Positions 8,357 through 19,285 of a stretch of DNA of 24,000 bases are shown in pieces. A program made the translations under genes and the position numbers. A model generated the notes under the pieces. The model worked only from the letters and a program-made list of their open reading frames with translations, made no database searches and was not told the origin of the DNA. Numbering within the stretch: position 1 is the stretch's first letter; every line of letters starts with the position of its first letter. Source of the stretch: Anaerospora hongkongensis (GTDB lineage: Bacteria; Bacillota; Negativicutes; Sporomusales; DSM-15969); NCBI RefSeq assembly GCF_004339805.1, contig NZ_SLUI01000007.1, positions 57,061 to 81,060 of the forward strand, read 5' to 3'.

Positions 8357-9507
8357 ATGGCATTGGACATGAGAACCTTACTAATTACCTCTATCATGGG
8401 AGTAATGATTAACGCCTTGGTGCTTGCGTTGGCCTGGTACTCGGAAAAGAAGCTGCGGCCGATAATCAGCTGCTGGTTTATTGGACAGGCTTCCCTGGGA
8501 CTTGGCATGACCTCATTGTCCTCCAGGGAACGGTTGCCCAATTTTGGGGCGTAGTTCTATCTAATGTGTGTGTAGCCTGCGGAATGGTTGCCGAGCAGGA
8601 AGGGCTGTTTCGTTATACTAAAAAAAGACGGGGCTATTTGCGGCCGGTACTCTTTTTGCTTGTAATAGCCAGTGGAGCGGGGATGTGGTTTTTTAACTAC
8701 ATCTATCCCTCCCTGGCTTGCCGGATCATTGTTTTTAGTCTGGTATCCATGATCTTTTCCGTCATTTTTATCAATACACTATTTAAAAGCGATGAAATAA
8801 GCGAAGCGCCGATAAAGCTGCTGGCGACAGCTCATACTCTGCAATTTGGCGTCATGGGTGCGCGCGCTGCCTTGGCCTACTGGCAAGGTGGCTATGTTAA
8901 TTCTTATTTGCATTTAGGTGGCATGCAAGCCGTATTGGTATTAGCTCTTTCCGCCTGCCATATTAGCCGTGCTGTGGGGTATTTTTGGTTAATTGTCCAC
9001 CGGCTGGGCTTAGAGATCCAAAAACAAGCGGTCACGGATGAGCTGACGGGATTATACAACCGGCGTGCCTTCGGCGAATATCTGGAGCAGTTGACGGCCG
9101 AAGGAACAGGGGGATTTGGGATCGCGATGATTGATGTGGACAAGTTCAAATCCATCAATGACCAGCATGGTCATCTGGCTGGCGACCGTTATCTTATACA
9201 AATCAGTAATTTATTCAGAACGCAGCTGGGCGTACACAGCCGGATATTTCGCTATGGCGGTGATGAATTTATTGCCATTATTCCCAATGTTACCAAAGCA
9301 GAGTTGCTGCAAATGCTGGAGCGGGTACGGTGTGCTGCAGCTGACTTGAAAATTCCATGGGAAGAGAAAACCGTTCAATCTACACTTAGCATTGGAATCT
9401 CGCTGGCAGCAGCTGACGGGAATAGCCTGGATCAATTGCTCGCCGCGGCTGATAAAGCATTGTATGTTGTCAAGGAACAAGGCGGCAACCAAATTGCTAT
9501 TTTATAA
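8357..9507 (+). pseudogene. membrane-anchored diguanylate cyclase (GGDEF), apparently interrupted by a 1-nt frameshift (track ORFs 8357..8554 and 8566..9507)
   Basis: The C-terminal domain is a clear GGDEF domain (TGLYNRRAF, DVDKFKSINDQHGH, RYGGDEF). ORF1 has a good RBS (AGGAGA) and encodes a TM segment. The ORF2 frame is open from 8413 and reads ...LIVLQGTVAQFWGVVLSNV directly into MCVACGMV. That continues the membrane domain with no RBS or ATG at 8566. Confidence 0.6.
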
Positions 9508-10707: not shown

Positions 10708-10740
10708 AGAAACCCTAGCCATGTGGCTAGGGTTTCTATT
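10708..10740 (+). terminator. stem-loop terminator after the hypothetical gene
   Basis: AGAAACCCTAGCC pairs with GGCTAGGGTTTCT in a near-perfect palindrome. The T-tail (TCTATT) is weak. Confidence 0.55.
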
Positions 10741-10983
10741 AGTACGTGTAATTGATTAAGCCTATATGAGGCTTGTATTAATTGAAAGGATATTGTAATA
10801 TAAATACGTCGAAACATACTATGTTTACAGGAGATGGCTACCCTGTACTGATGATGACAGGCTTATTATCAATCAAAAATCTTATTAAGGTTCTTGGTGA
10901 GGGAGCGTGGTGCTATATCAATATTAATTTCTTTGTTCACTCATTAAACCATTTTTCGCTCTACTTTAGTTTTTTAGCCATCT

Positions 10984-11036
10984 CGCCTTATAGGCCAAGC
11001 CTACTGATGAGTCCGTGTAAGTCGGACGAAAAGGGT
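10984..11036 (+). ncRNA. candidate type III hammerhead self-cleaving ribozyme
   Basis: Read 5' to 3': CCUU (10986-10989, stem III 5' strand), A10990 (H17, predicted cleavage after it), UAGGC-CAA-GCCUA (10991-11003, stem I hairpin), CUGAUGA (11004-11010), GUCCG-UGUAAGU-CGGAC (11011-11027, stem II with the G10.1-C11.1 pair), GAA (11028-11030) and AAGG (11031-11034, stem III 3' strand with the A15.1-U16.1 pair). Every invariant core position matches. Confidence 0.65.
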
Positions 11037-11068
11037 AAAAGACATCCGATGCTGGATGTCTTTTTTAT
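11037..11068 (+). terminator. rho-independent terminator immediately 3' of the hammerhead motif
   Basis: AAAAGACATCC (11037-11047), loop GATGCT, GGATGTCTTTT (11054-11064), with the T-run continuing to 11066. Confidence 0.75.
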
Positions 11069-11229
11069 TATATCAATCATTACCTTTAGCGTATGATTTT
11101 CCTCTATGCTTCTCGACGTAACAACACAGGAAGATGGCACTTTTTAGCGAAACATAAAGATATTGGTATATATCTTTTAGAGATGAATTTGCTTATCTGA
11201 TGTTAATTTGCATTCGGAGGGTGACTTTT

Positions 11230-14200
11230 TTGAAATCTAACTTTTCTTTTTTAGAAGGACGATGGCCGCTTCTTGCTTCTATTGGGATGATGGCTGAACG
11301 ATATATCCATACCGACTCAAATTCCTGCTTTATCAAGCTGGGGTTATTTGCCGAGTCTATGGTACGGTTGATCTTTACATTAGATCAGATCGAAGAACCG
11401 CAGGTCGATAATACGCATGCCAACCGGATTAGAATTCTCAAAAATGAAGGACTTCTTCCGAAAGATATTGATGATATTCTCTATGTGCTCAGACAGACGC
11501 GCAATAAAGCGGCCCATGATGGCTACGAATCAACTGAACAGGCCATGCTCTTAGTTCAGTTTGCCTATAAGCTTGGCGGCTGGTTCATGCAGACCTATGG
11601 AGACTGGAATTATGAGCCAGTAGCTTTTGTAAAACCTCATGCTATTGCGAATGACCTTGCTCTCAGTTCTGACAGCAAGCAGCAAGAAGAGCGCATCAAA
11701 GAACTCACCACGCAGATCAAGCAAGATGTTGCTGCTCTGCAGCCTATACCGCTTGCTGAACGACGAAAACAAAGCATTTCGTCAGCAGAAAAAATCAATC
11801 TTTCCGAAAAAGAAACCCGTTATCTCATCGACGAACAGCTCAGGCAAGTTGGCTGGGAAGCCGATTCCCTTCATATTCGCTACTCTAAGGGCATAAGACC
11901 ACAACGCGGCAAAAATCTGGCTATCGCTGAATGGCCGACCGATTCAATGGTAGGCGGTAGAGGTTTTGTCGACTATGCGCTATTTGTTGGAACTCAATTG
12001 GTTGGTGTTGTTGAGGCCAAGCGTCATTTGACAGACGTCCCAGCCGTGATTGATTATCAATGCAAAGAGTATGCCCAAAAGATAAAAGCCGAGCATGCCG
12101 GGTATCGCATCCATCAATGGGGCGACTATCAGGTCCCGTTTCTCTTTGCCACCAATGGACGCAAGTATTTAAAACAGCTGGAAACAAAATCGGGTATTTG
12201 GTTTTTGGATGCCCGTAAACCCACTAATCTTGCTAAAGCGCTGCAAGGCTGGCCAAGTCCGCAGGGCTTGCTTGAACTCTTGGCACAGGATATAGATAAA
12301 GCCAATCAGGTATTGGCCAATACCAGCTATGATCTGTTGAGCGATAAGGATGGCTTGAACTTACGGGATTATCAAATAAAAGCCATTCAGTCGGCTGAGC
12401 AAGCCGTAGCCGAAGGTAAGCAGACTGTGTTATTGTCAATGGCCACCGGGACAGGGAAAACCCGGACGATTTTAGGTCTGATCTATCGCTTAATCAAAAC
12501 TAGCCGTTTTAAACGAGTGCTATTTCTGGTTGATCGCACCGCGTTAGGGGAACAGGCTCAGGATGTCTTTAAGGAAGTCAAATTGGAAGACTTAATGACC
12601 CTAGATGAAATTTATAATATTAAAGGGTTGGAAGATAAGGAGATTGACAAAGAAACCAAAATCCACGTCGCCACAGTTCAGAGTCTTGTCAAAAGAATCC
12701 TGTATGCTGATGGTGAAAGCATGCCCGCTGTTACTGACTATGATTTGATTGTGATTGATGAAGCTCACCGGGGCTACATCCTGGACAAAGAAATGGGCGA
12801 AGAGGAACTGTTGTATCGGAATCAAGAGGATTATGTCAGTAAATACCGGACAGTCATTGAATATTTTGATGCTGTAAAAATAGCGCTTACCGCAACTCCG
12901 GCCCTCCATACCACAGAAATTTTCGGCACTCCTGTTTTTAACTATACCTATCGTGAAGCCGTCATTGAAGGCTATTTGGTTGATCATGATGCCCCCCATA
13001 CCCTGAAAACCAAGCTGGCCATGGAAGGCATTCGTTATTGCAAAGGTGATATTGTTGCCTTATATGATCCGGTTACTGGAGAAATTACCAACAGTCATGA
13101 ACTGGAAGACGAACTGAATTTTGATATTGAAAGTTTTAACCGGAAAGTTATTACCGAATCATTTAATAAAACGGTGTTAGAGGAAATTGCCAAATATATC
13201 AACCCGGACGGTCAGGGCAAAACTTTAATTTTTGCCGTGGATGATGCTCATGCCGATCTGATTGTCAAACTTCTGAAAGTAATCTATCAGGAATATGGCG
13301 TAGATCGGGATGCCATTATGAAAATCACCGGTTCGGTGGCTGGCGGCAACAAGAAGAAAGTACTGGAAGCCATTAAAAAGTTTAAAAATGAGAAATATCC
13401 CAATCTTGTTGTTACCGTTGACTTGCTGACAACTGGAATTGACGTTCCTGAAATATCCACCCTGGTGTTTATGCGCCGGGTAAAGTCAAGAATTCTGTTT
13501 GAACAGATGTTAGGCCGGGCAACCCGCCTATGTTCCGATATTGATAAGACACACTTTGAAATCTTTGACCCGGTAGGTGTGTACGAATCCTTAGAACCGT
13601 TAAGTACCATGAAGCCGGTAGTGGCCAATAAAGGTGCTACCTTTGCCGATCTGATCAACGGGCTGGAAGTGCTGGAAACCGAAGCCCAAAAGAAAAATCA
13701 GCTTGACCTGATTATCGCTAAGCTGCAGCGAGCCAAACGAAAAGTCAACAGCCAGCTGCTGGAACATTTTATTGACTTATCAGGCGGGCAAAATCCAGCC
13801 CAATTTATTGAAACCCTGCAAACGCTGACCATCGAGAAGGCTCAAGACCATATCCTGGAGCATAAACGCCTGTTCGAACTTCTGAATGAAGGTGGCTATC
13901 ATCCGGGAAGAGCGACAGTTGTATCCTTTAAGGAAGACGAACTGCTCTATCATACCAGAGGCTATGGCAATGCCCAAAAACCGCAAGACTATTTGGAAGA
14001 ATTCAAACGTTTTGTTGAAGACAATAAAGATAAAATTGCTGCGTTGAATATTGTCTGCACCAGACCCAAAGAGCTTACACGCGAGACTTTAAAAAGTCTA
14101 AAACTGGAGCTTGACCGTAATCGATTTACTGAGGTTCAACTCAATTCAGCCTGGAGAGAGATCCGGAATGAAGAGATTACGGCTGATATTATTACCTTTA

Positions 14201-14487
14201 TTCGTCGGCTAACGCTGGGCTCACCCTTGATTAGCCACGAACAGCGAATCAAAAATGCTGTGAATAAGCTTAAGCAGAATCATCGCTTTAGTAAAATGGA
14301 GCTGGACTGGCTGGGACGGATTGAAAAGCATCTTTTGCATGAAAGCATTCTGGCGGTCGACACCTTTGAAACCGGCGCATTCAAATCAAAGGGCGGGTAC
14401 AAAGTTATCAATAAAGTTTTTAGCAATAAATTGGAAGAAATTATCGCAGAACTTAATGATTATCTATATGACGATTGGAGCGCATAA
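11230..14487 (+). CDS. hsdR: type I restriction endonuclease R subunit (HsdR) with an N-terminal DUF4145-like domain and an EcoEI-R-type C-terminal region
   Basis: Walker A MATGTGKT, DEAH box VIDEAHRG, helicase motif VI-like QMLGRATR and an HSDR_N-type region (ETRYLIDEQLRQVGW) are present. The N-terminal ~130 aa (FSFLEGRWP...RNKAAHD) resemble DUF4145. The likely start is TTG 11230 (MKSNFSFLE), 8 nt after the RBS GGAGGG. The track start at 11200 has no RBS. Confidence 0.9.
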   Translation: MKSNFSFLEGRWPLLASIGMMAERYIHTDSNSCFIKLGLFAESMVRLIFTLDQIEEPQVDNTHANRIRILKNEGLLPKDIDDILYVLRQTRNKAAHDGYESTEQAMLLVQFAYKLGGWFMQTYGDWNYEPVAFVKPHAIANDLALSSDSKQQEERIKELTTQIKQDVAALQPIPLAERRKQSISSAEKINLSEKETRYLIDEQLRQVGWEADSLHIRYSKGIRPQRGKNLAIAEWPTDSMVGGRGFVDYALFVGTQLVGVVEAKRHLTDVPAVIDYQCKEYAQKIKAEHAGYRIHQWGDYQVPFLFATNGRKYLKQLETKSGIWFLDARKPTNLAKALQGWPSPQGLLELLAQDIDKANQVLANTSYDLLSDKDGLNLRDYQIKAIQSAEQAVAEGKQTVLLSMATGTGKTRTILGLIYRLIKTSRFKRVLFLVDRTALGEQAQDVFKEVKLEDLMTLDEIYNIKGLEDKEIDKETKIHVATVQSLVKRILYADGESMPAVTDYDLIVIDEAHRGYILDKEMGEEELLYRNQEDYVSKYRTVIEYFDAVKIALTATPALHTTEIFGTPVFNYTYREAVIEGYLVDHDAPHTLKTKLAMEGIRYCKGDIVALYDPVTGEITNSHELEDELNFDIESFNRKVITESFNKTVLEEIAKYINPDGQGKTLIFAVDDAHADLIVKLLKVIYQEYGVDRDAIMKITGSVAGGNKKKVLEAIKKFKNEKYPNLVVTVDLLTTGIDVPEISTLVFMRRVKSRILFEQMLGRATRLCSDIDKTHFEIFDPVGVYESLEPLSTMKPVVANKGATFADLINGLEVLETEAQKKNQLDLIIAKLQRAKRKVNSQLLEHFIDLSGGQNPAQFIETLQTLTIEKAQDHILEHKRLFELLNEGGYHPGRATVVSFKEDELLYHTRGYGNAQKPQDYLEEFKRFVEDNKDKIAALNIVCTRPKELTRETLKSLKLELDRNRFTEVQLNSAWREIRNEEITADIITFIRRLTLGSPLISHEQRIKNAVNKLKQNHRFSKMELDWLGRIEKHLLHESILAVDTFETGAFKSKGGYKVINKVFSNKLEEIIAELNDYLYDDWSA

Positions 14488-14490
14488 CGA

Positions 14491-15909
14491 GTGACAAATC
14501 AAGAAATCGTAGCCAAGCTGTGGAACTTATGCAACGTCCTGCGAGATGATGGCATCACCTATCATCAGTACGTGACGGAGCTTACTTATATTCTTTTTCT
14601 AAAAATGGCTAAAGAGACCGATACCGACAGTCAAATTCCTGCCGAGTACCGCTGGGATAAGTTGGCAGGACAACAAGGAACAGACCTAAAGAAATTCTAT
14701 AACAGGCTGCTGAATGATTTAGGAGAAAATAGTACCGGCAGAGTCCGGGAGATTTATTCAGGAGCCCGCTCGAATATTGAAGAGCCGAAGAATCTGGAAA
14801 AGATCATTAAATCCATTGATGATCTGGACTGGTATTCGGCGAAAGAAGAGGGGCTTGGCAACCTCTATGAGGGACTGTTAGAGAAAAACGCCAACGAAAA
14901 GAAATCCGGGGCAGGTCAGTATTTTACCCCGCGAGTCTTGATTGATATTATGGTAAAACTCATAAATCCCAAGGTGGGCGAAGTTTGCAATGATCCTGCC
15001 TGTGGCACATTTGGCTTTATGATTGCTGCTGACCGGTATATCAAAGATCAGACTGACGGCTTGCTGGATTTGCCGGTAGATGTGCAGCTATTCCAGAAAC
15101 AAAAGGCCTTCACTGGCTGCGAACTAGTACATGACACCCATCGTCTGGCGCTTATGAATGCCATGCTGCATGATATCGAAGGTGAAATCGTATTGGGAGA
15201 TACCTTGTCCAATGCAGGTAAGAGTATGAAAGGCTATGACGTCGTGCTCACCAATCCGCCGTTTGGCACCAAGAAAGGCGGCGAGCGCACGAACCGCGAC
15301 GATTTAGTCTATCCTAGTTCCAATAAGCAGTTAAACTTTCTCCAACATATTTATCGTTCGTTAAAGTCTGATAATCAGGCACGGGCGGCTGTGGTGCTGC
15401 CCGATAACGTACTGTTTGCTGACGGGGACGGAGCCAATATTCGTGAGGATCTGATGGATAAATGTAACCTGCATACTATCCTCAGATTACCTACCGGGAT
15501 TTTCTATGCCCAGGGAGTAAAGACCAATGTATTATTCTTTACCCGGGGTGCTACTGACAAAGGGAATACCAAGCAAGTCTGGGTCTATGACTTACGCACC
15601 AACATGCCCAGTTTTGGCAAGACCACGCCGCTTAAAGTGGAGCATTTTGCTGGATTCATGCAGGCCTATACTGCCCAAGATCGTTCCTCTGTTCAGGACG
15701 AACGCTGGAACCTGTTCACTAGGGAGCAGATCACCGAAAAGGGTAACAGCCTGGATGTTGGCCTAATTCGTGATGACAGTGTACTCGACTATGAAGACCT
15801 GCAGGACCCGATAGAAAGCGGCGAGGAAGTAGTTGCTCAATTGGAAGAAGCCGTTGACCTCATTCTGAGTGTCGTCAAAGAACTGAAAAGTCTGGGCGGT
15901 GGCAAGTAA
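14491..15909 (+). CDS. hsdM: type I R-M N6-adenine DNA methyltransferase subunit (HsdM)
   Basis: The HsdM_N-type N-terminus (KLWNLCNVLRDDG...YILFLKM), the SAM-binding region DPACGTFGF and the catalytic NPPFG are present. A GTG start lies 3 nt after the hsdR stop. Confidence 0.92.
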   Translation: MTNQEIVAKLWNLCNVLRDDGITYHQYVTELTYILFLKMAKETDTDSQIPAEYRWDKLAGQQGTDLKKFYNRLLNDLGENSTGRVREIYSGARSNIEEPKNLEKIIKSIDDLDWYSAKEEGLGNLYEGLLEKNANEKKSGAGQYFTPRVLIDIMVKLINPKVGEVCNDPACGTFGFMIAADRYIKDQTDGLLDLPVDVQLFQKQKAFTGCELVHDTHRLALMNAMLHDIEGEIVLGDTLSNAGKSMKGYDVVLTNPPFGTKKGGERTNRDDLVYPSSNKQLNFLQHIYRSLKSDNQARAAVVLPDNVLFADGDGANIREDLMDKCNLHTILRLPTGIFYAQGVKTNVLFFTRGATDKGNTKQVWVYDLRTNMPSFGKTTPLKVEHFAGFMQAYTAQDRSSVQDERWNLFTREQITEKGNSLDVGLIRDDSVLDYEDLQDPIESGEEVVAQLEEAVDLILSVVKELKSLGGGK

Positions 15910-17414
15910 TGGCGAAGAAAGAAAAGCTGTCGCTGTCGCCGGAGGAACTACTGGAGCAGGCTTTAGTTAAAGAAGAGGAGCAGCCTTATGCTGTGCCGGG
16001 TAATTGGGTGTGGACTAGGTTGGCAAGTTTGGTAAATATACACAGAGGCGTTTCATTCACAAAGAATGATGCAAAACTTAAAAAAGAAAATACTACTTGT
16101 CTAATTTTACGTGGTGGAAATATAAATGATGGAAAGCTAATATTCGATGATAATATTTATGTGAGTAAATCTTTAGTAAAAGAAGTACAGTTATTGAAAA
16201 AAAACGATATTATTATTGTTGCATCTACTGGCAGTACTAAAGTTATCGGAAAAGCGGCAATATCTGAAGAAAATTATGCAGATGTTGCATTTGGAGCTTT
16301 TATTACATTAGTAAGAGTTAAAGAGGATTTAAATCAAAAGTTTGTTGCCTTTTATTTTCTAAGTGAAATGTATAGAAGCTTAATTAGAAAATATGCAAAA
16401 GGTGTCAATATAAATAATATTAAGAACGAGCACATTTTATTTATGCCATTCGTTCTTCCCCCGCTCCCCGAACAGCAACGAATCGTTGCTGTAATCGAAT
16501 CTCTTTTCGAAAAGCTCAACCGCGCCAAAGAACTGGCCCAAACCGCTCTAGACTCCTTTGAAAACAGAAAATCTGCTATATTGCATAAAGCCTTCACCGG
16601 GGAACTGACCAGAAAGTGGCGTGAGGAGAATACTTCAGAGCATAATAAGTTATTGGAAGTTATATTGGAATTTTATACAAATTCTTCAAAACTTAAAGAT
16701 ATAAGTATAATTAAAGAGTTTCAGGGAAAGGCCTCTGTTCTTAAAAACATTAAAAATAGTAAATGGTATAAGTGTCATATAGGGGCAATTGGAATAGTTT
16801 GTAATGGCAGTACCCCATCCCGAAAAGTTTTAAAATACTGGGGAGGCGAGATTTCTTGGGTTAGTTCTGGGGAGGTCCGGAACAATGTTATAAACTATAC
16901 AAATGAAAAAATCACGACTGAGGGATATAATGCATCATCAGTAAGGATGTTGAATAAAGGTTCGATTCTTATTGCTATGATTGGAGAAGGTAAAACACGG
17001 GGGCAAACCGCGATATTAAATATTGATGCAACTATTAATCAAAATATCGCAGCTATAGATTTAAGTCACAAATGTGTGATTTCAAAATTTGTTTGGTATT
17101 GGTTGCAATATCAATATGAAAATAATCGTCAAGTAGGAAACGGCTCTGGCCCAAAAGCACTTAATTGTCATAAAATCCGAAATTTGGATTTTATTCTTCC
17201 CCCTCTTCTAGAACAACAAGAAATCGTCCGTATTCTCGATAACCTCCTGGAAAACGAGCAAAAAGCCAAAGATCTGTGTGATGTGATCGATAAAATTGAC
17301 CATATGAAAAAATCCATCCTAGCCCGTGCTTTCCGAGGCGAGCTGGGTACTAACAATCCTGCTGAAGAAAGCGCTCTAGGGTTGTTGAAAGAAGTGCTGA
17401 AGGCTAAGGCTTAA
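15909..17414 (+). CDS. hsdS: type I R-M specificity subunit (HsdS) with two target recognition domains
   Basis: The ATG overlaps the hsdM stop (TAATG). Two conserved helical repeats separate two variable TRDs: PPLPEQQRIVAVIESLFEKL...ILHKAFTGELT and PPLLEQQEIVRILDNLLENE...ILARAFRGELG. Confidence 0.92.
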   Translation: MAKKEKLSLSPEELLEQALVKEEEQPYAVPGNWVWTRLASLVNIHRGVSFTKNDAKLKKENTTCLILRGGNINDGKLIFDDNIYVSKSLVKEVQLLKKNDIIIVASTGSTKVIGKAAISEENYADVAFGAFITLVRVKEDLNQKFVAFYFLSEMYRSLIRKYAKGVNINNIKNEHILFMPFVLPPLPEQQRIVAVIESLFEKLNRAKELAQTALDSFENRKSAILHKAFTGELTRKWREENTSEHNKLLEVILEFYTNSSKLKDISIIKEFQGKASVLKNIKNSKWYKCHIGAIGIVCNGSTPSRKVLKYWGGEISWVSSGEVRNNVINYTNEKITTEGYNASSVRMLNKGSILIAMIGEGKTRGQTAILNIDATINQNIAAIDLSHKCVISKFVWYWLQYQYENNRQVGNGSGPKALNCHKIRNLDFILPPLLEQQEIVRILDNLLENEQKAKDLCDVIDKIDHMKKSILARAFRGELGTNNPAEESALGLLKEVLKAKA

Positions 17415-17465
17415 CCGTAAAAGGTATGTGGGGGATAATTTTAGGGAATTGGTAGAAGAGGATTG

Positions 17466-18350
17466 ATGCACATGTCAGGCAAATTAATTCGCTTATTCTT
17501 AACTGATGGTCAGCCCAATGGGTTGCGGACAGTTGAAATTTCCAATATGACCATTCATGGAACGATTTTTCCCCGGACGCAATTAGAGGGTTTTATGAAG
17601 CGGGAGGCGGCTAATAAACCGGGGGTGTATATGCTCATTGGTCAGGACGAGCAGGATCTGGAAACTATTGCTTTATACATTGGACAAGGCGACCCGGTGT
17701 TGCCACGGTTACGGGATCATGCCCGGAACAAGGAGTTTTGGACCGAGGCTATCGTTTTTTCTTCGAAAGATGATTATCTAACCAAAACCCAGGTTAAATA
17801 TCTGGAGGCAGACTTGTATGCCCTAGCGAAGGAAGCATATAGGGCCAAACTGGATAATACGCAAGCACCGACCAGGCCGAACATCTCGGAAGTGGATAAA
17901 GCCGAAGTCAATCAGTTCCTAGAGGCCATTAAACTGCTGCTATTGGCACTAGGCCGAGATATTTTAGAACCAAGGATCTTAACCGAAGCAAATACGGGCG
18001 TATCGGAAACCATATTTGAGTTGAAAAATAAGAATGCCTTTGCCCGTATGGCAGTTATCAATAATAAGTATGTGGTGCTCAAAGGCTCTACCGCTGTCCG
18101 CGAAAATCGGCGTTCTATAGCCCCGTTCCTGGTTAAACTTCGTCAAGATCTGGTGGATACTGGTATTATGGTTGAGACTGATGAAGAACTTTATACATTT
18201 ATGCAGGATGCCACCTTTAATAGCCCAAGTTACGCAGCAGCGGCAATCGTGGGCGGTGCTGCCAATGGGCGGAGATTATGGAAGTACAACGGTAAGGCAT
18301 TAAGAGAGTGGGATAATGAAATAGTAGATATCTGTGAAGATGACGATTAA
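17466..18350 (+). CDS. GIY-YIG nuclease-like protein with a C-terminal DUF4357-like domain, co-oriented fourth gene of the R-M operon
   Basis: GIY-YIG elements are present: GVYML, LYIGQG, RLRDH and YLEADL (Glu). The C-terminal FNSPSYAAAAIVGGAANGRRLWK matches my recollection of DUF4357. Start candidates are ATG 17466 or 17472, after the RBS GAAGAGGA. The gene begins ~50 nt after hsdS with no terminator between them. Confidence 0.8.
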   Translation: MHMSGKLIRLFLTDGQPNGLRTVEISNMTIHGTIFPRTQLEGFMKREAANKPGVYMLIGQDEQDLETIALYIGQGDPVLPRLRDHARNKEFWTEAIVFSSKDDYLTKTQVKYLEADLYALAKEAYRAKLDNTQAPTRPNISEVDKAEVNQFLEAIKLLLLALGRDILEPRILTEANTGVSETIFELKNKNAFARMAVINNKYVVLKGSTAVRENRRSIAPFLVKLRQDLVDTGIMVETDEELYTFMQDATFNSPSYAAAAIVGGAANGRRLWKYNGKALREWDNEIVDICEDDD

Positions 18351-18390
18351 CAAAAGCTCTAAAAATTTCTTAACAAAGGATTTATTATAA

Positions 18391-18440
18391 AAGAACGCCT
18401 AAAGTAAGCCAGTTCCGCTTACTTTAGGCGTTCTTTTCTT
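18391..18440. terminator. strong bidirectional terminator closing the R-M operon and the convergent XRE genes
   Basis: A 19-bp perfect stem: AAGAACGCCTAAAGTAAGC (18391-18409), loop CAGTTCC, GCTTACTTTAGGCGTTCTT (18417-18435). T-rich tracts lie on both sides. Confidence 0.85.
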
Positions 18441-18451
18441 TCAGCTATCCT

Positions 18452-18570
18452 TTAATCCATCTCTTCCCGCTTCCAAATCCCATGCTTATACAGCACAACC
18501 TCTCAATCAAGGCAATTTCTTTTTTATTTCCTCGGGCAGATTATACTTCTCATTATCCTCCCGAATGGCC
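18452..18570 (-). pseudogene. degenerate, frameshifted copy of the 3' (C-terminal tail) portion of the XRE gene at 18956..19285
   Basis: It aligns base-for-base with 18956-19075 at an offset of 504 bp, roughly 85-90% identical by eye. It would encode ..IREDNEKYNLPEEIKKEIALIE, then loses frame at a 1-nt deletion (GAGAGGTTGTG versus GAGGAGTTTGTG). It is not in frame with the adjacent 75-aa gene. Confidence 0.7.
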
Positions 18571-18573
18571 TAT

Positions 18574-18801
18574 TTACCTTCTTTTCGGATTATCAGATAA
18601 GCCAGCTAAATAATCTAATGACACATTAAAATACTCTGCTAAAGCCGTAGCCATATCAAGTGGAGGAAGTCGATCACCTTTCTCCCAATGGCTTACGGTT
18701 TGCTTTGTGACACTAAATTTTGCTCCTAATTGTTCAAGTGTTAAATTATTTTGTTGTCTCAGGTCTCTTAATCTTTTACAAAAAATTTCGTGTAAAAACA
18801 T
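18574..18801 (-). CDS. XRE-family helix-turn-helix transcriptional regulator (75 aa)
   Basis: An HTH_3 pattern is present (LTLEQLGAKFSVTKQTVSHWEKGDRLPPLDMATALAEYFNVSLDYL). An AAGGAG RBS lies 7 nt upstream of the ATG at 18801. Confidence 0.85.
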   Translation of the reverse strand: MFLHEIFCKRLRDLRQQNNLTLEQLGAKFSVTKQTVSHWEKGDRLPPLDMATALAEYFNVSLDYLAGLSDNPKRR

Positions 18802-18812
18802 TAGAATACTCC

Positions 18813-18841
18813 TTGACAGTCAACTGAAAGTTGACTAGAAT
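18813..18841 (+). promoter_or_regulatory. near-consensus sigma-A promoter P1 whose spacer is exactly operator O1
   Basis: TTGACA (18813-18818), a 17-nt spacer (18819-18835, GTCAACTGAAAGTTGAC), then TAGAAT (18836-18841). It points rightward, into the antisense of the 109-aa XRE gene. Confidence 0.55.
18819..18835. promoter_or_regulatory. 17-bp palindromic operator O1 (GTCAACT-N3-AGTTGAC)
   Basis: GTCAACTGAAAGTTGAC has perfect 7-bp inverted arms. Confidence 0.6.
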
Positions 18842-18856
18842 AAACATAGGCATTGA

Positions 18857-18873
18857 GTCAACTTTTAGTTGAC
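18857..18873. promoter_or_regulatory. 17-bp palindromic operator O2 (GTCAACT-N3-AGTTGAC)
   Basis: GTCAACTTTTAGTTGAC has the same arms as O1. The two centres are 38 bp apart. Confidence 0.6.
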
Positions 18874-18955
18874 AAACAAAAGGTTTATAAAGTAGGAAGA
18901 GGGTTGAACTAGAATATATAACGATGATTTATAAGAGCAAGTGACCTTATTCCGA

Positions 18956-19075
18956 TTACTCCATCTCTTCCCGTTTCCGAATCCCATGCTTATACAGCAC
19001 AAACTCCTCAATCAAAGCAATTTCCTTTTTGACTTCCTCGGGCAGGTTATATTTCTCATTATCTTCGCGAATGAC
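18956..19075. repeat. right-hand copy of the ~120-bp direct repeat (partner at 18452-18570)
   Basis: See the pseudogene entry. Similarity stops abruptly at ~18570/19075 and at the stop codon TTA (18452-18454 / 18956-18958). Confidence 0.75.
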
Positions 19076-19285
19076 TGGTACAGGTTTGGCTTCCGTGAAA
19101 AATTCAGCCAGAGAGATGTCCAGGGCCTGGCAGACTTTTTCCAGAGTTGTAACGTTAGGATTTTTTTTACCGATTTCAATATCCCGCAATGTAGCCTGGC
19201 CGATTCCGGCAAGCTGAGCGAGCTTGTTGGTTGAGTAATTCTTTTCTGTCCGCAACTGAATAATGCGTTTGGCAGTATTCATCAT
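18956..19285 (-). CDS. XRE-family helix-turn-helix transcriptional regulator (109 aa) with a charged C-terminal tail
   Basis: An HTH_3 pattern is present (YSTNKLAQLAGIGQATLRDIEIGKKNPNVTTLEKVCQALDISLAEFF). A GGAGG RBS lies 7 nt upstream of the ATG at 19285. A possible -10 TATAAT on the minus strand sits at 19319..19314. The + strand ORFs 18941..19234 and 19029..19217 are antisense shadows. Confidence 0.88.
   Translation of the reverse strand: MMNTAKRIIQLRTEKNYSTNKLAQLAGIGQATLRDIEIGKKNPNVTTLEKVCQALDISLAEFFTEAKPVPVIREDNEKYNLPEEVKKEIALIEEFVLYKHGIRKREEME

Follow-up and report, generated by a model that had tools for sequence, protein, structure and literature searches.

A probable self-contained twin-hammerhead cassette around a small open reading frame, next to a type I restriction-modification operon of Anaerospora hongkongensis

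The window analysed here comprises 24,000 nucleotides of the genome of Anaerospora hongkongensis. It harbours, on the plus strand, a type I restriction-modification (R-M) operon consisting of hsdR (11230-14487), hsdM (14491-15909) and hsdS (15909-17414), followed by a gene encoding a DUF4357 protein (17463-18350). These assignments are based on Pfam, which also detects an N-terminal DUF4145 domain in HsdR. The start codon of hsdR is most likely the TTG at 11230, which lies behind a GGAGGG (11217-11222), and the gene calls on identical metagenome contigs agree with this position. Together with the hammerhead cassette described below, the four genes form a variable island of 7.7 kb (10741-18445, plus strand). 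The boundaries of this island were derived from the only other species of the genus (G001, approximately 86% DNA identity), where synteny breaks off exactly at 10740 and is re-established near 18446 and where a different insert of approximately 10.5 kb occupies the same site. Since synteny breaks at these two positions, the cassette is located at the left edge of the island. Upstream of it, there are a GGDEF gene and a DUF2939 gene, the latter with a terminator of its own (10710-10735).

There are two smaller observations concerning the flanks. The GGDEF diguanylate cyclase gene (8566-9507) is absent from G001, where the DLH and DUF2939 genes are adjacent, and it thus represents a second small presence/absence difference beside the island. 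To the right of the island, two Cro/C1-type HTH genes (18570-19285, minus strand) are common to both species and constitute a conserved right flank.

The spacer in front of hsdR contains a type III hammerhead ribozyme, referred to as HH-B, at 10986-11034 of the plus strand, with a predicted cleavage between A10990 and U10991. The first strand of stem III (CCTT, 10986-10989) and A10990 are followed by the stem I hairpin TAGGC-CAA-GCCTA (10991-11003, 5 bp with the loop CAA), by CTGATGA (11004-11010), by a second hairpin, GTCCG-TGTAAGT-CGGAC (11011-11027, 5 bp with a loop of 7 nt), by GAA (11028-11030) and by the second strand of stem III (AAGG, 11031-11034). Aligned to the core of the Rfam family RF00008, C3 to A9 read CUGAUGA (11004-11010) and G12 to A14 read GAA (11028-11030), the pair A15.1-U16.1 is formed by A11031 and U10989, H17 is A10990 and therefore not a G, and G10.1-C11.1 corresponds to G11011 and C11027. 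Both the minimum-energy fold and a descriptor scan give closed stems I and II and an open stem III, and the minimum-energy fold of 10980-11070 consists of a three-way junction plus a terminator. The core, the helices and the topology that a preliminary description of this DNA had proposed are therefore borne out by the letters, the fold and the descriptor alike, and the cleavage site predicted there is consistent with a complete type III core. A type I reading of HH-B, with the terminator serving as stem III, was rejected, as it offers no continuous helix from A15.1.

At the Rfam gathering thresholds, no match is obtained for HH-B. If an E-value threshold is applied instead, RF00008 (Hammerhead_3) aligns to 10989-11037 with 34.1 bits, compared to a cut-off of 48.5 bits. 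This is the best match within 10900-11120 and, with an E-value of 2.8e-5, the sole match in the genome of 4.63 Mb. The low score is due to the short stem III of 4 bp and to the UUA cleavage site. The E-values of RF00008 appear to be calibrated, since a search of 60 relatives resulted in one weak match at E ≤ 0.01, which is near the chance expectation. We also scanned the whole genome with a descriptor of our own, which demands CUGANGA, GAA, the A15.1-U16.1 pair, an H17 other than G and at least four pairs in each of the three stems in type III order. HH-B is its single match, and in 12 random genomes with a matched dinucleotide composition there was one loose match in total (approximately 0.08 per genome) and none with 5/5/4 pairs.

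Further evidence for HH-B comes from its relatives. A scan of viral contigs with a pattern restricted to geometry gave the provirus locus L057 as the first true relative, in which stem I and the UUA site are the same as in the window, while stem II covaries. From the window and the relatives found first, a family pattern was then generalised. Its fixed positions are the core, G10.1/C11.1, a portion of loop 2 and two invariant stem II pairs, including the closing pair, whereas stems I and III and the other positions of stem II were left free. Scans with this pattern identified 6 loci in viral contigs, 30 in genomes and 69 in metagenomes (approximately 100 loci), the hosts being Clostridium, Paraclostridium, Solibacillus, Pseudomonas, Marinobacter, Rhodocyclus, Pantoea and others. 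Almost all of these loci can be parsed as a type III fold with a stem I of 5 bp and a loop of 3-4 nt and a stem II of 5 bp with the loop UGNNANU; the family possesses a UU-H cleavage site and a stem III of 2-8 bp. In an alignment of 32 sequences, 87.5% of the cells are paired and double changes occur at 13 of the 17 pairs, whereas none of 500 shuffles scored as high and slid controls were paired to 31-49%. A test for covariation in stems I to III, as proposed in the preliminary description, thus had a clear outcome, with compensatory changes among the homologues in all three stems. Moreover, a covariance model built from 66 relatives, with the window left out, assigns 67.4 bits to HH-B of the window (E-value of 4e-20 for the window and 8e-18 for the genome), and the runner-up site in the genome reaches only 20.9 bits.

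The relatives also put the Rfam score into perspective. The type III copy of L057 obtains 38.2 bits with RF00008 and family scores lie between 34 and 38 bits wherever they were listed, and none of the 17 related loci scanned reaches the cut-off of 48.5 bits. Since its members stay below this cut-off, the family is missed by standard annotation. The comparison to Rfam, which had also been suggested earlier with a score below the cut-off counting as a refutation, therefore has two sides: HH-B indeed falls short of the curated cut-off, yet the same is true for every related locus that was scanned.

It could be argued that HH-B, in an AT-rich spacer, resembles the hammerhead consensus only by chance, and its score below the curated cut-off, its stem III of only 4 bp and its non-GUC site would fit such an explanation. 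However, the genome-wide E-value and the single descriptor match, set against the rate in random genomes, are difficult to reconcile with it, and because there are about 100 covarying homologues, which share the flanking elements described below (a second hammerhead, an ORF and a helix) as well, this explanation is already refuted and its probability is close to nil. The earlier statement that such a motif is very unlikely to arise by chance is thereby corroborated. On the level of sequence, HH-B is confirmed as a genuine type III hammerhead with a complete core, which belongs to a widespread bacterial family and is predicted to be self-cleaving.

Closer to the host organism, the cassette was found in none of 120 relatives and an orthologous spacer in none of the 60 relatives searched. 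Metagenome contigs of the same species from two independent assemblies are 100% identical at the spacer and for this reason do not provide any covariation information. Not every hammerhead encountered belongs to the family. The first scan of viral contigs, which was keyed on stem II, yielded only type I phage hammerheads, which are not relatives of HH-B. On two large phage contigs (L013:1892-6178 and L018:7999-10304), four to five type I hammerheads of nearly the same sequence follow one another as an array, mostly about 480-500 nt apart and with a GUC site and a closed stem III. Within the same class as A. hongkongensis, the genome G496 has a hammerhead at about 1501-1554 of L337 (G496:C9:42729-42782), but this is an ordinary type III hammerhead with a GUC site amid small phage-like genes and is unrelated to the cassette.

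An alignment of the window with L057 revealed a second hammerhead 135 nt upstream. This type II hammerhead (HH-A) extends from 10808 to 10863 on the plus strand and its predicted cut lies between 10825 and 10826. It is composed of GUC, GAA, stem III (ACAU-ACU-AUGU), U10825 as H17, stem I (10826-10847, 6 bp with a loop of 10 nt), CUGAUGA (10848-10854), an extra U (10855), GAC and the tail AGGCU. Direct reading and the alignment to RF02276 (Hammerhead_II) both give the core, closed stems I and III and an open stem II, which are the characteristics of type II. A longer stem II built from the flanking sequences was considered as well, but none is conserved. Across the family, HH-A is well conserved as a structure: Over 42 copies of the cassette, pairing in stem I amounts to 99% and each of its six pairs shows double changes, stem II covaries between GUC/GAC and GCC/GGC, and a pseudoknot between loop 1 and the 3' tail is 95% paired. 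HH-A is a member of a type II family that is very abundant in phages, with viral loci numbering more than 118.

Compared to most copies, HH-A of the window is weaker, with a GUU site, a stem III of 4 bp that is rich in AU and a weakened pseudoknot of about three pairs (two G-C pairs and one G-U pair, with one mismatch). It is the top type II match in the genome, with 27 bits. Compared to the Rfam families, both hammerheads of the cassette resemble the known ones in their complete catalytic cores and right topologies, and the type II copies from eight proteobacterial relatives exceed the RF02276 cut-off of 37 bits (38.6-47.3 bits); they differ in that the type III copies remain below 48.5 bits and the type II copy of the window below 37 bits. 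At three loci (L230, L231 and L256), the type II ribozyme, approximately 200-270 nt upstream of HH-B, is decayed: CUGAUG continues with U or C, and neither GAAAC nor a stem III is present. These three loci nevertheless retain the ORF, HH-B and the terminator.

The two hammerheads are connected by a small open reading frame of 81 codons plus stop (10851-11096, plus strand), which starts with an AUG at 10851 or 10854 inside the core of HH-A and crosses the cleavage site of HH-B and, in the window copy, also the terminator. In the family, the start AUG consists of A9, the extra U and G10.1 of the HH-A core, and the usual N-terminus is M-M-A/T-G. This frame likewise stays open from the AUG past the HH-B cut in 63 of 66 related loci, and its stop codon is always found 3' of the cut, at a distance of 5 to 188 nt and mostly as the UGA of loop 2. 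The distance between the two cuts varies from 135 to 249 nt and, except for three of the 66 loci, is divisible by 3 without an in-frame stop; these three are L240 (190 nt) and the decayed copies L255 and L311. With 165 nt between the cuts and no in-frame stop, the window agrees with the definition that we used for a cassette, namely an HH-A located 135-250 nt upstream of HH-B at a multiple of 3, the frame being open from its AUG past the HH-B cut.

The encoded peptides comprise about 40-95 residues and can be aligned across lineages. In the group with 225 nt between the cuts, the mostly hydrophobic N-terminal half exhibits the variability expected of a coding sequence (third codon position > first > second) and 46% of the single changes are synonymous, whereas the C-terminal half shows neither codon periodicity nor such a share of synonymous changes. 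Since codon periodicity is lacking in the C-terminal half, conservation may act on the RNA in part of the ORF. A box in mid-frame that resembles a Shine-Dalgarno sequence, together with an AUG, is strongly conserved in the family on the DNA level. The ORF of the window is divergent, as it lacks this internal box and AUG, its loop 2 UGA is replaced and its N-terminus is not hydrophobic. None of the peptides could be assigned to a family in Pfam or PHROG, and no more than a few of them have been called as "hypothetical protein". The preliminary description had placed the ribozyme in a non-coding gap of approximately 490 bp. The location in a spacer is right, but it would be too simple to call the gap non-coding, since it is traversed by an ORF that the family conserves.

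The 5' and the 3' part of the cassette are also connected by base pairing. The sequence GAGAUGGCUA (10831-10840, plus strand), which comprises the last base of the 5' strand of stem I and loop 1 of HH-A, forms ten perfect pairs with UAGCCAUCUC (10975-10984, plus strand), which ends 1 nt before the stem III strand of HH-B, in the minimum-energy fold of 10806-11070. Such a helix of 8-12 bp is found across the family, where its sequences differ between the subfamilies and covary. The best-helix score is 10 for the window and 9.0 on average for the family, compared to 5.6 ± 1.1 for shuffled arms.

A promoter-like site of putative function on the plus strand (10773-10801) consists of TTGTAT (10773-10778), a 17-nt spacer and TAATAT (10796-10801). 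The distance from its end to the first base of HH-A is 6 nt, and it lies below the threshold of a consensus scan. Relatives of the Firmicute type possess a good sigma-70 promoter that ends 6-7 nt before HH-A, for instance TTGACA-17-TATATT-7-GUC in L309 and L325 and TTGACT-17-TACAAT-7-GUC in L258. At the other end, HH-B is followed by an intrinsic terminator (11037-11068, plus strand) with a stem of 12 bp (hairpin 11037-11064), a GAUG loop and a U run, at the position that the preliminary description had given for a terminator. A terminator 9-47 nt after HH-B is also present in L132, L230/L256, L231 and 14 of 57 metagenome loci; about a quarter of the loci have a terminator shortly after HH-B. 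Overall, the earlier picture of HH-B was correct as to the ribozyme itself, but it overlooked HH-A, the spanning ORF, the long-range helix and the promoter.

The neighbourhood of HH-B and hsdR raised the question of a functional link. One could assume that the hammerhead and its terminator are a leader which controls the type I R-M operon, for example with the read-through into hsdR being set by ribosomes that translate the ORF across the terminator or else by cleavage. HH-B lies on the same strand and 196 nt upstream of hsdR, the ORF of the window reads through the terminator hairpin up to 11096, and in relatives without a terminator the downstream gene begins only about 10-15 nt after HH-B. 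On the other hand, a search with the HsdR, HsdM and HsdS proteins of the window against the approximately 100 family loci did not reveal a homologous type I R-M system at any of them, and vice versa, the upstream regions of ten hsdR homologues (46-60% identity) do not contain a hammerhead. In addition, the two units in the window are separated by a strong terminator and by 160 nt with a separate Shine-Dalgarno sequence, and a match to the Phe_leader family is weak (33.6 bits compared to a gathering score of 55 bits) and carried by the terminator and a U-rich stretch. We therefore regard a leader function as very unlikely. Since no sampled member of the family adjoins a homologous type I R-M system, the link amounts to co-location only, and the cassette and the operon appear to be neighbours rather than a functional pair. 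The presence of HH-A, the ORF, the helix and the promoter argues that HH-B is the 3' end of a self-contained cassette and not an hsdR leader. For the window, this removes the suggested connection between hammerhead and restriction.

It is thus probable that the locus represents a self-contained twin-hammerhead cassette, which is composed of a promoter, HH-A, an ORF with its AUG in the ribozyme core, HH-B overlapping the end of the ORF, and a terminator. This architecture is directly supported by the sequence, the membership in a family, the covariation, the conservation of the ORF and of the helix, and the boundary of the island. As to its mode of action, we infer that transcription would begin at about 10808, which would place HH-A at the very 5' end of the transcript. 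The cut of HH-A (10825/10826) would remove a triphosphate leader of 18 nt in vivo, and the cut of HH-B (10990/10991) would remove its own body and the terminator hairpin. Both cuts together would release an RNA of 165 nt (10826-10990) with a 5'-OH and a 2',3'-cyclic phosphate, which would be held together by the 10-bp helix, so that both RNA ends would emerge from one end of this helix. Because the HH-B cut lies inside the ORF, the processed RNA would have no stop codon, and hence only uncleaved transcripts could yield a normally terminated protein, whatever role this protein might have.

Some features speak against full activity of the copy in the window, namely the weak HH-A, the poor promoter boxes, the divergent ORF, and the four pairs of stem III and the UUA site of HH-B. 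It is conceivable that this cassette is a decaying relic, homologous to functional ones, but with one or both ribozymes or the ORF no longer working and carried along with the island. Such a decay would be in line with the promoter boxes, with an HH-A of 27 bits that contrasts with the values of its relatives and has a GUU site and a weakened pseudoknot, and with an ORF that lacks the internal start, the loop 2 stop and the hydrophobic N-terminus; decayed copies do exist elsewhere (HH-A of L230/L231/L256, L255 and L311). However, the core, the stems and the conserved loop positions of HH-B are intact, as reflected by its 67.4 bits, the long-range helix is perfect, the frame has remained open across 81 codons in an AT-rich sequence, and two independent metagenome assemblies contain the identical sequence. 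All in all, we consider decay to be rather unlikely.

If the cassette is functional, it might be a gene whose expression is gated by ribozymes and whose product is a small membrane protein, possibly a toxic one. On this reading, HH-A would strip the triphosphate leader and the end-to-end helix would store the processed RNA, which could not give rise to a stable product since the HH-B cut leaves no stop codon. A slowed folding of the ribozymes, caused by closely coupled translation or by the stress of a phage infection, would then permit synthesis of the full-length protein. Prophages and defence islands would then carry a gated gene of this kind as a module for addiction or abortive infection, and hammerheads in bacteria would thereby acquire a defined role, but this is a speculative proposal to which we assign a low probability. 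A natural point of comparison are the type I toxin mRNAs such as hok, which encode a small hydrophobic protein in mobile DNA, fold back from 5' to 3' and are processed at their 3' end in a way that alters the RNA. The cassette resembles them in its small and mostly hydrophobic ORF in mobile DNA and in the pairing of the 5' and 3' ends of the RNA. It differs in the predicted processing by ribozymes instead of exonucleases, in the lack of sequence similarity and in the missing hydrophobic N-terminus of the window ORF, the hydropathy of which is atypical.

A different fate of the excised RNA would be circularisation, followed by translation round and round as an endless ORF. Engineered twin-ribozyme cassettes work in a comparable way: self-cleaving ribozymes at the 5' and 3' side create defined 5'-OH and cyclic-phosphate ends in a stem, and ligation relies on RtcB. 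The cassette described here shares with them the two flanking ribozymes and the predicted ends of the same chemistry held in a stem, but it is a natural one, carries an ORF and is mostly found in hosts without RtcB. A circular RNA would be compatible with the placement of both ends side by side by a conserved helix, with the excised length being a multiple of 3 without in-frame stop in most loci, and with L281, where this rule still holds despite a stem I of 23 nt. However, the multiple of 3 results mostly from in-frame indels of the coding region, and since L240, the other informative locus, breaks the rule and so disagrees with L281, we rejected it as a proof of a circular ORF. The excised RNA also does not comprise a complete hammerhead that could catalyze self-ligation. 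A search for RtcB (PF01139) in this genome (99.98% complete) was negative, and the protein was found in only one of 27 cassette-bearing genomes (G459-G485), compared to 10 of 14 control genomes, which disfavours a circularisation mediated by RtcB. Finally, an earlier search for circular products of clustered bacterial hammerheads found none (PMC3088659). Circularisation therefore seems very unlikely. The scarcity of RtcB in cassette-bearing genomes may itself be a taxon bias or a real avoidance.

Hammerheads of types I, II and III that are clustered round small, non-conserved prophage genes were described in 2011 and a role in RNA processing was suggested for them (PMC3088659), whereas a review from 2017 still regarded the biological role of bacterial hammerheads as an open question (PMC6155905). 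The cassette has much in common with these clusters (Perreault et al. 2011, PMC3088659; PMC6155905): a type II and a type III hammerhead bracket a short gene on one strand in DNA of prophages or integrated elements, and the type II copies of the family have a pseudoknot between loop 1 and the 3' tail, which is weakened in the window. The function proposed for the clusters is the processing into single-gene RNAs. In contrast to them, the cassette is one conserved family with a promoter 6-7 nt before the type II hammerhead, a start codon made of A9, the extra U and G10.1, an ORF that always passes the type III cut, a covarying helix that joins the ends, and a UU-H instead of a GUC site. A search of the literature on hammerheads in connection with defence islands, anti-phage systems, RtcB and small ORFs, which covered journals outside of subscription, did not turn up a description of such a cassette. 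Thus, it is the conserved architecture of the cassette that appears to be undescribed, while clustered hammerheads flanking small prophage genes are already known. As a compact, conserved and widespread unit with fixed features, each of which can be mutated and tested, the cassette bears on the role of hammerheads in bacteria.

The genomic context of the cassettes is that of accessory DNA. The adjoining genes differ from locus to locus and encode defence-type proteins (HEPN AbiU2, ThsB-like TIR, CAP12/Pycsar TIR, DUF4145, PIN_12, FRG and HerA-like proteins) or belong to mobile elements (KilA-N, VapE-like primase and a c4 antisense target); others are tRNA genes and ordinary core genes. The preliminary description had mentioned that bacterial hammerheads often reside in mobile or phage DNA, and this agrees well with the location of HH-B in a horizontally acquired island and with its patchy distribution. 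Judged by sequence and context, the cassette is patchily distributed accessory DNA of the prophage and defence-island type, which is found at the edges of islands and would not be a regulator of R-M. In another genome, a stand-alone DUF4145 protein is encoded directly downstream of a cassette (L250:1607-2251), a domain that also occurs in HsdR of the window. At three loci (L242:5631-5704, L236:6781-6934 and L260:2972-3046), the cassette begins within approximately 100 nt of a tRNA gene, which is a typical integration site. In a Pseudomonas genome, a c4-a1b1 antisense-target RNA (RF03163, 49.4 bits), as known from P1/P7-type phages, is situated about 0.5 kb from the cassette (L248:5740-5791).
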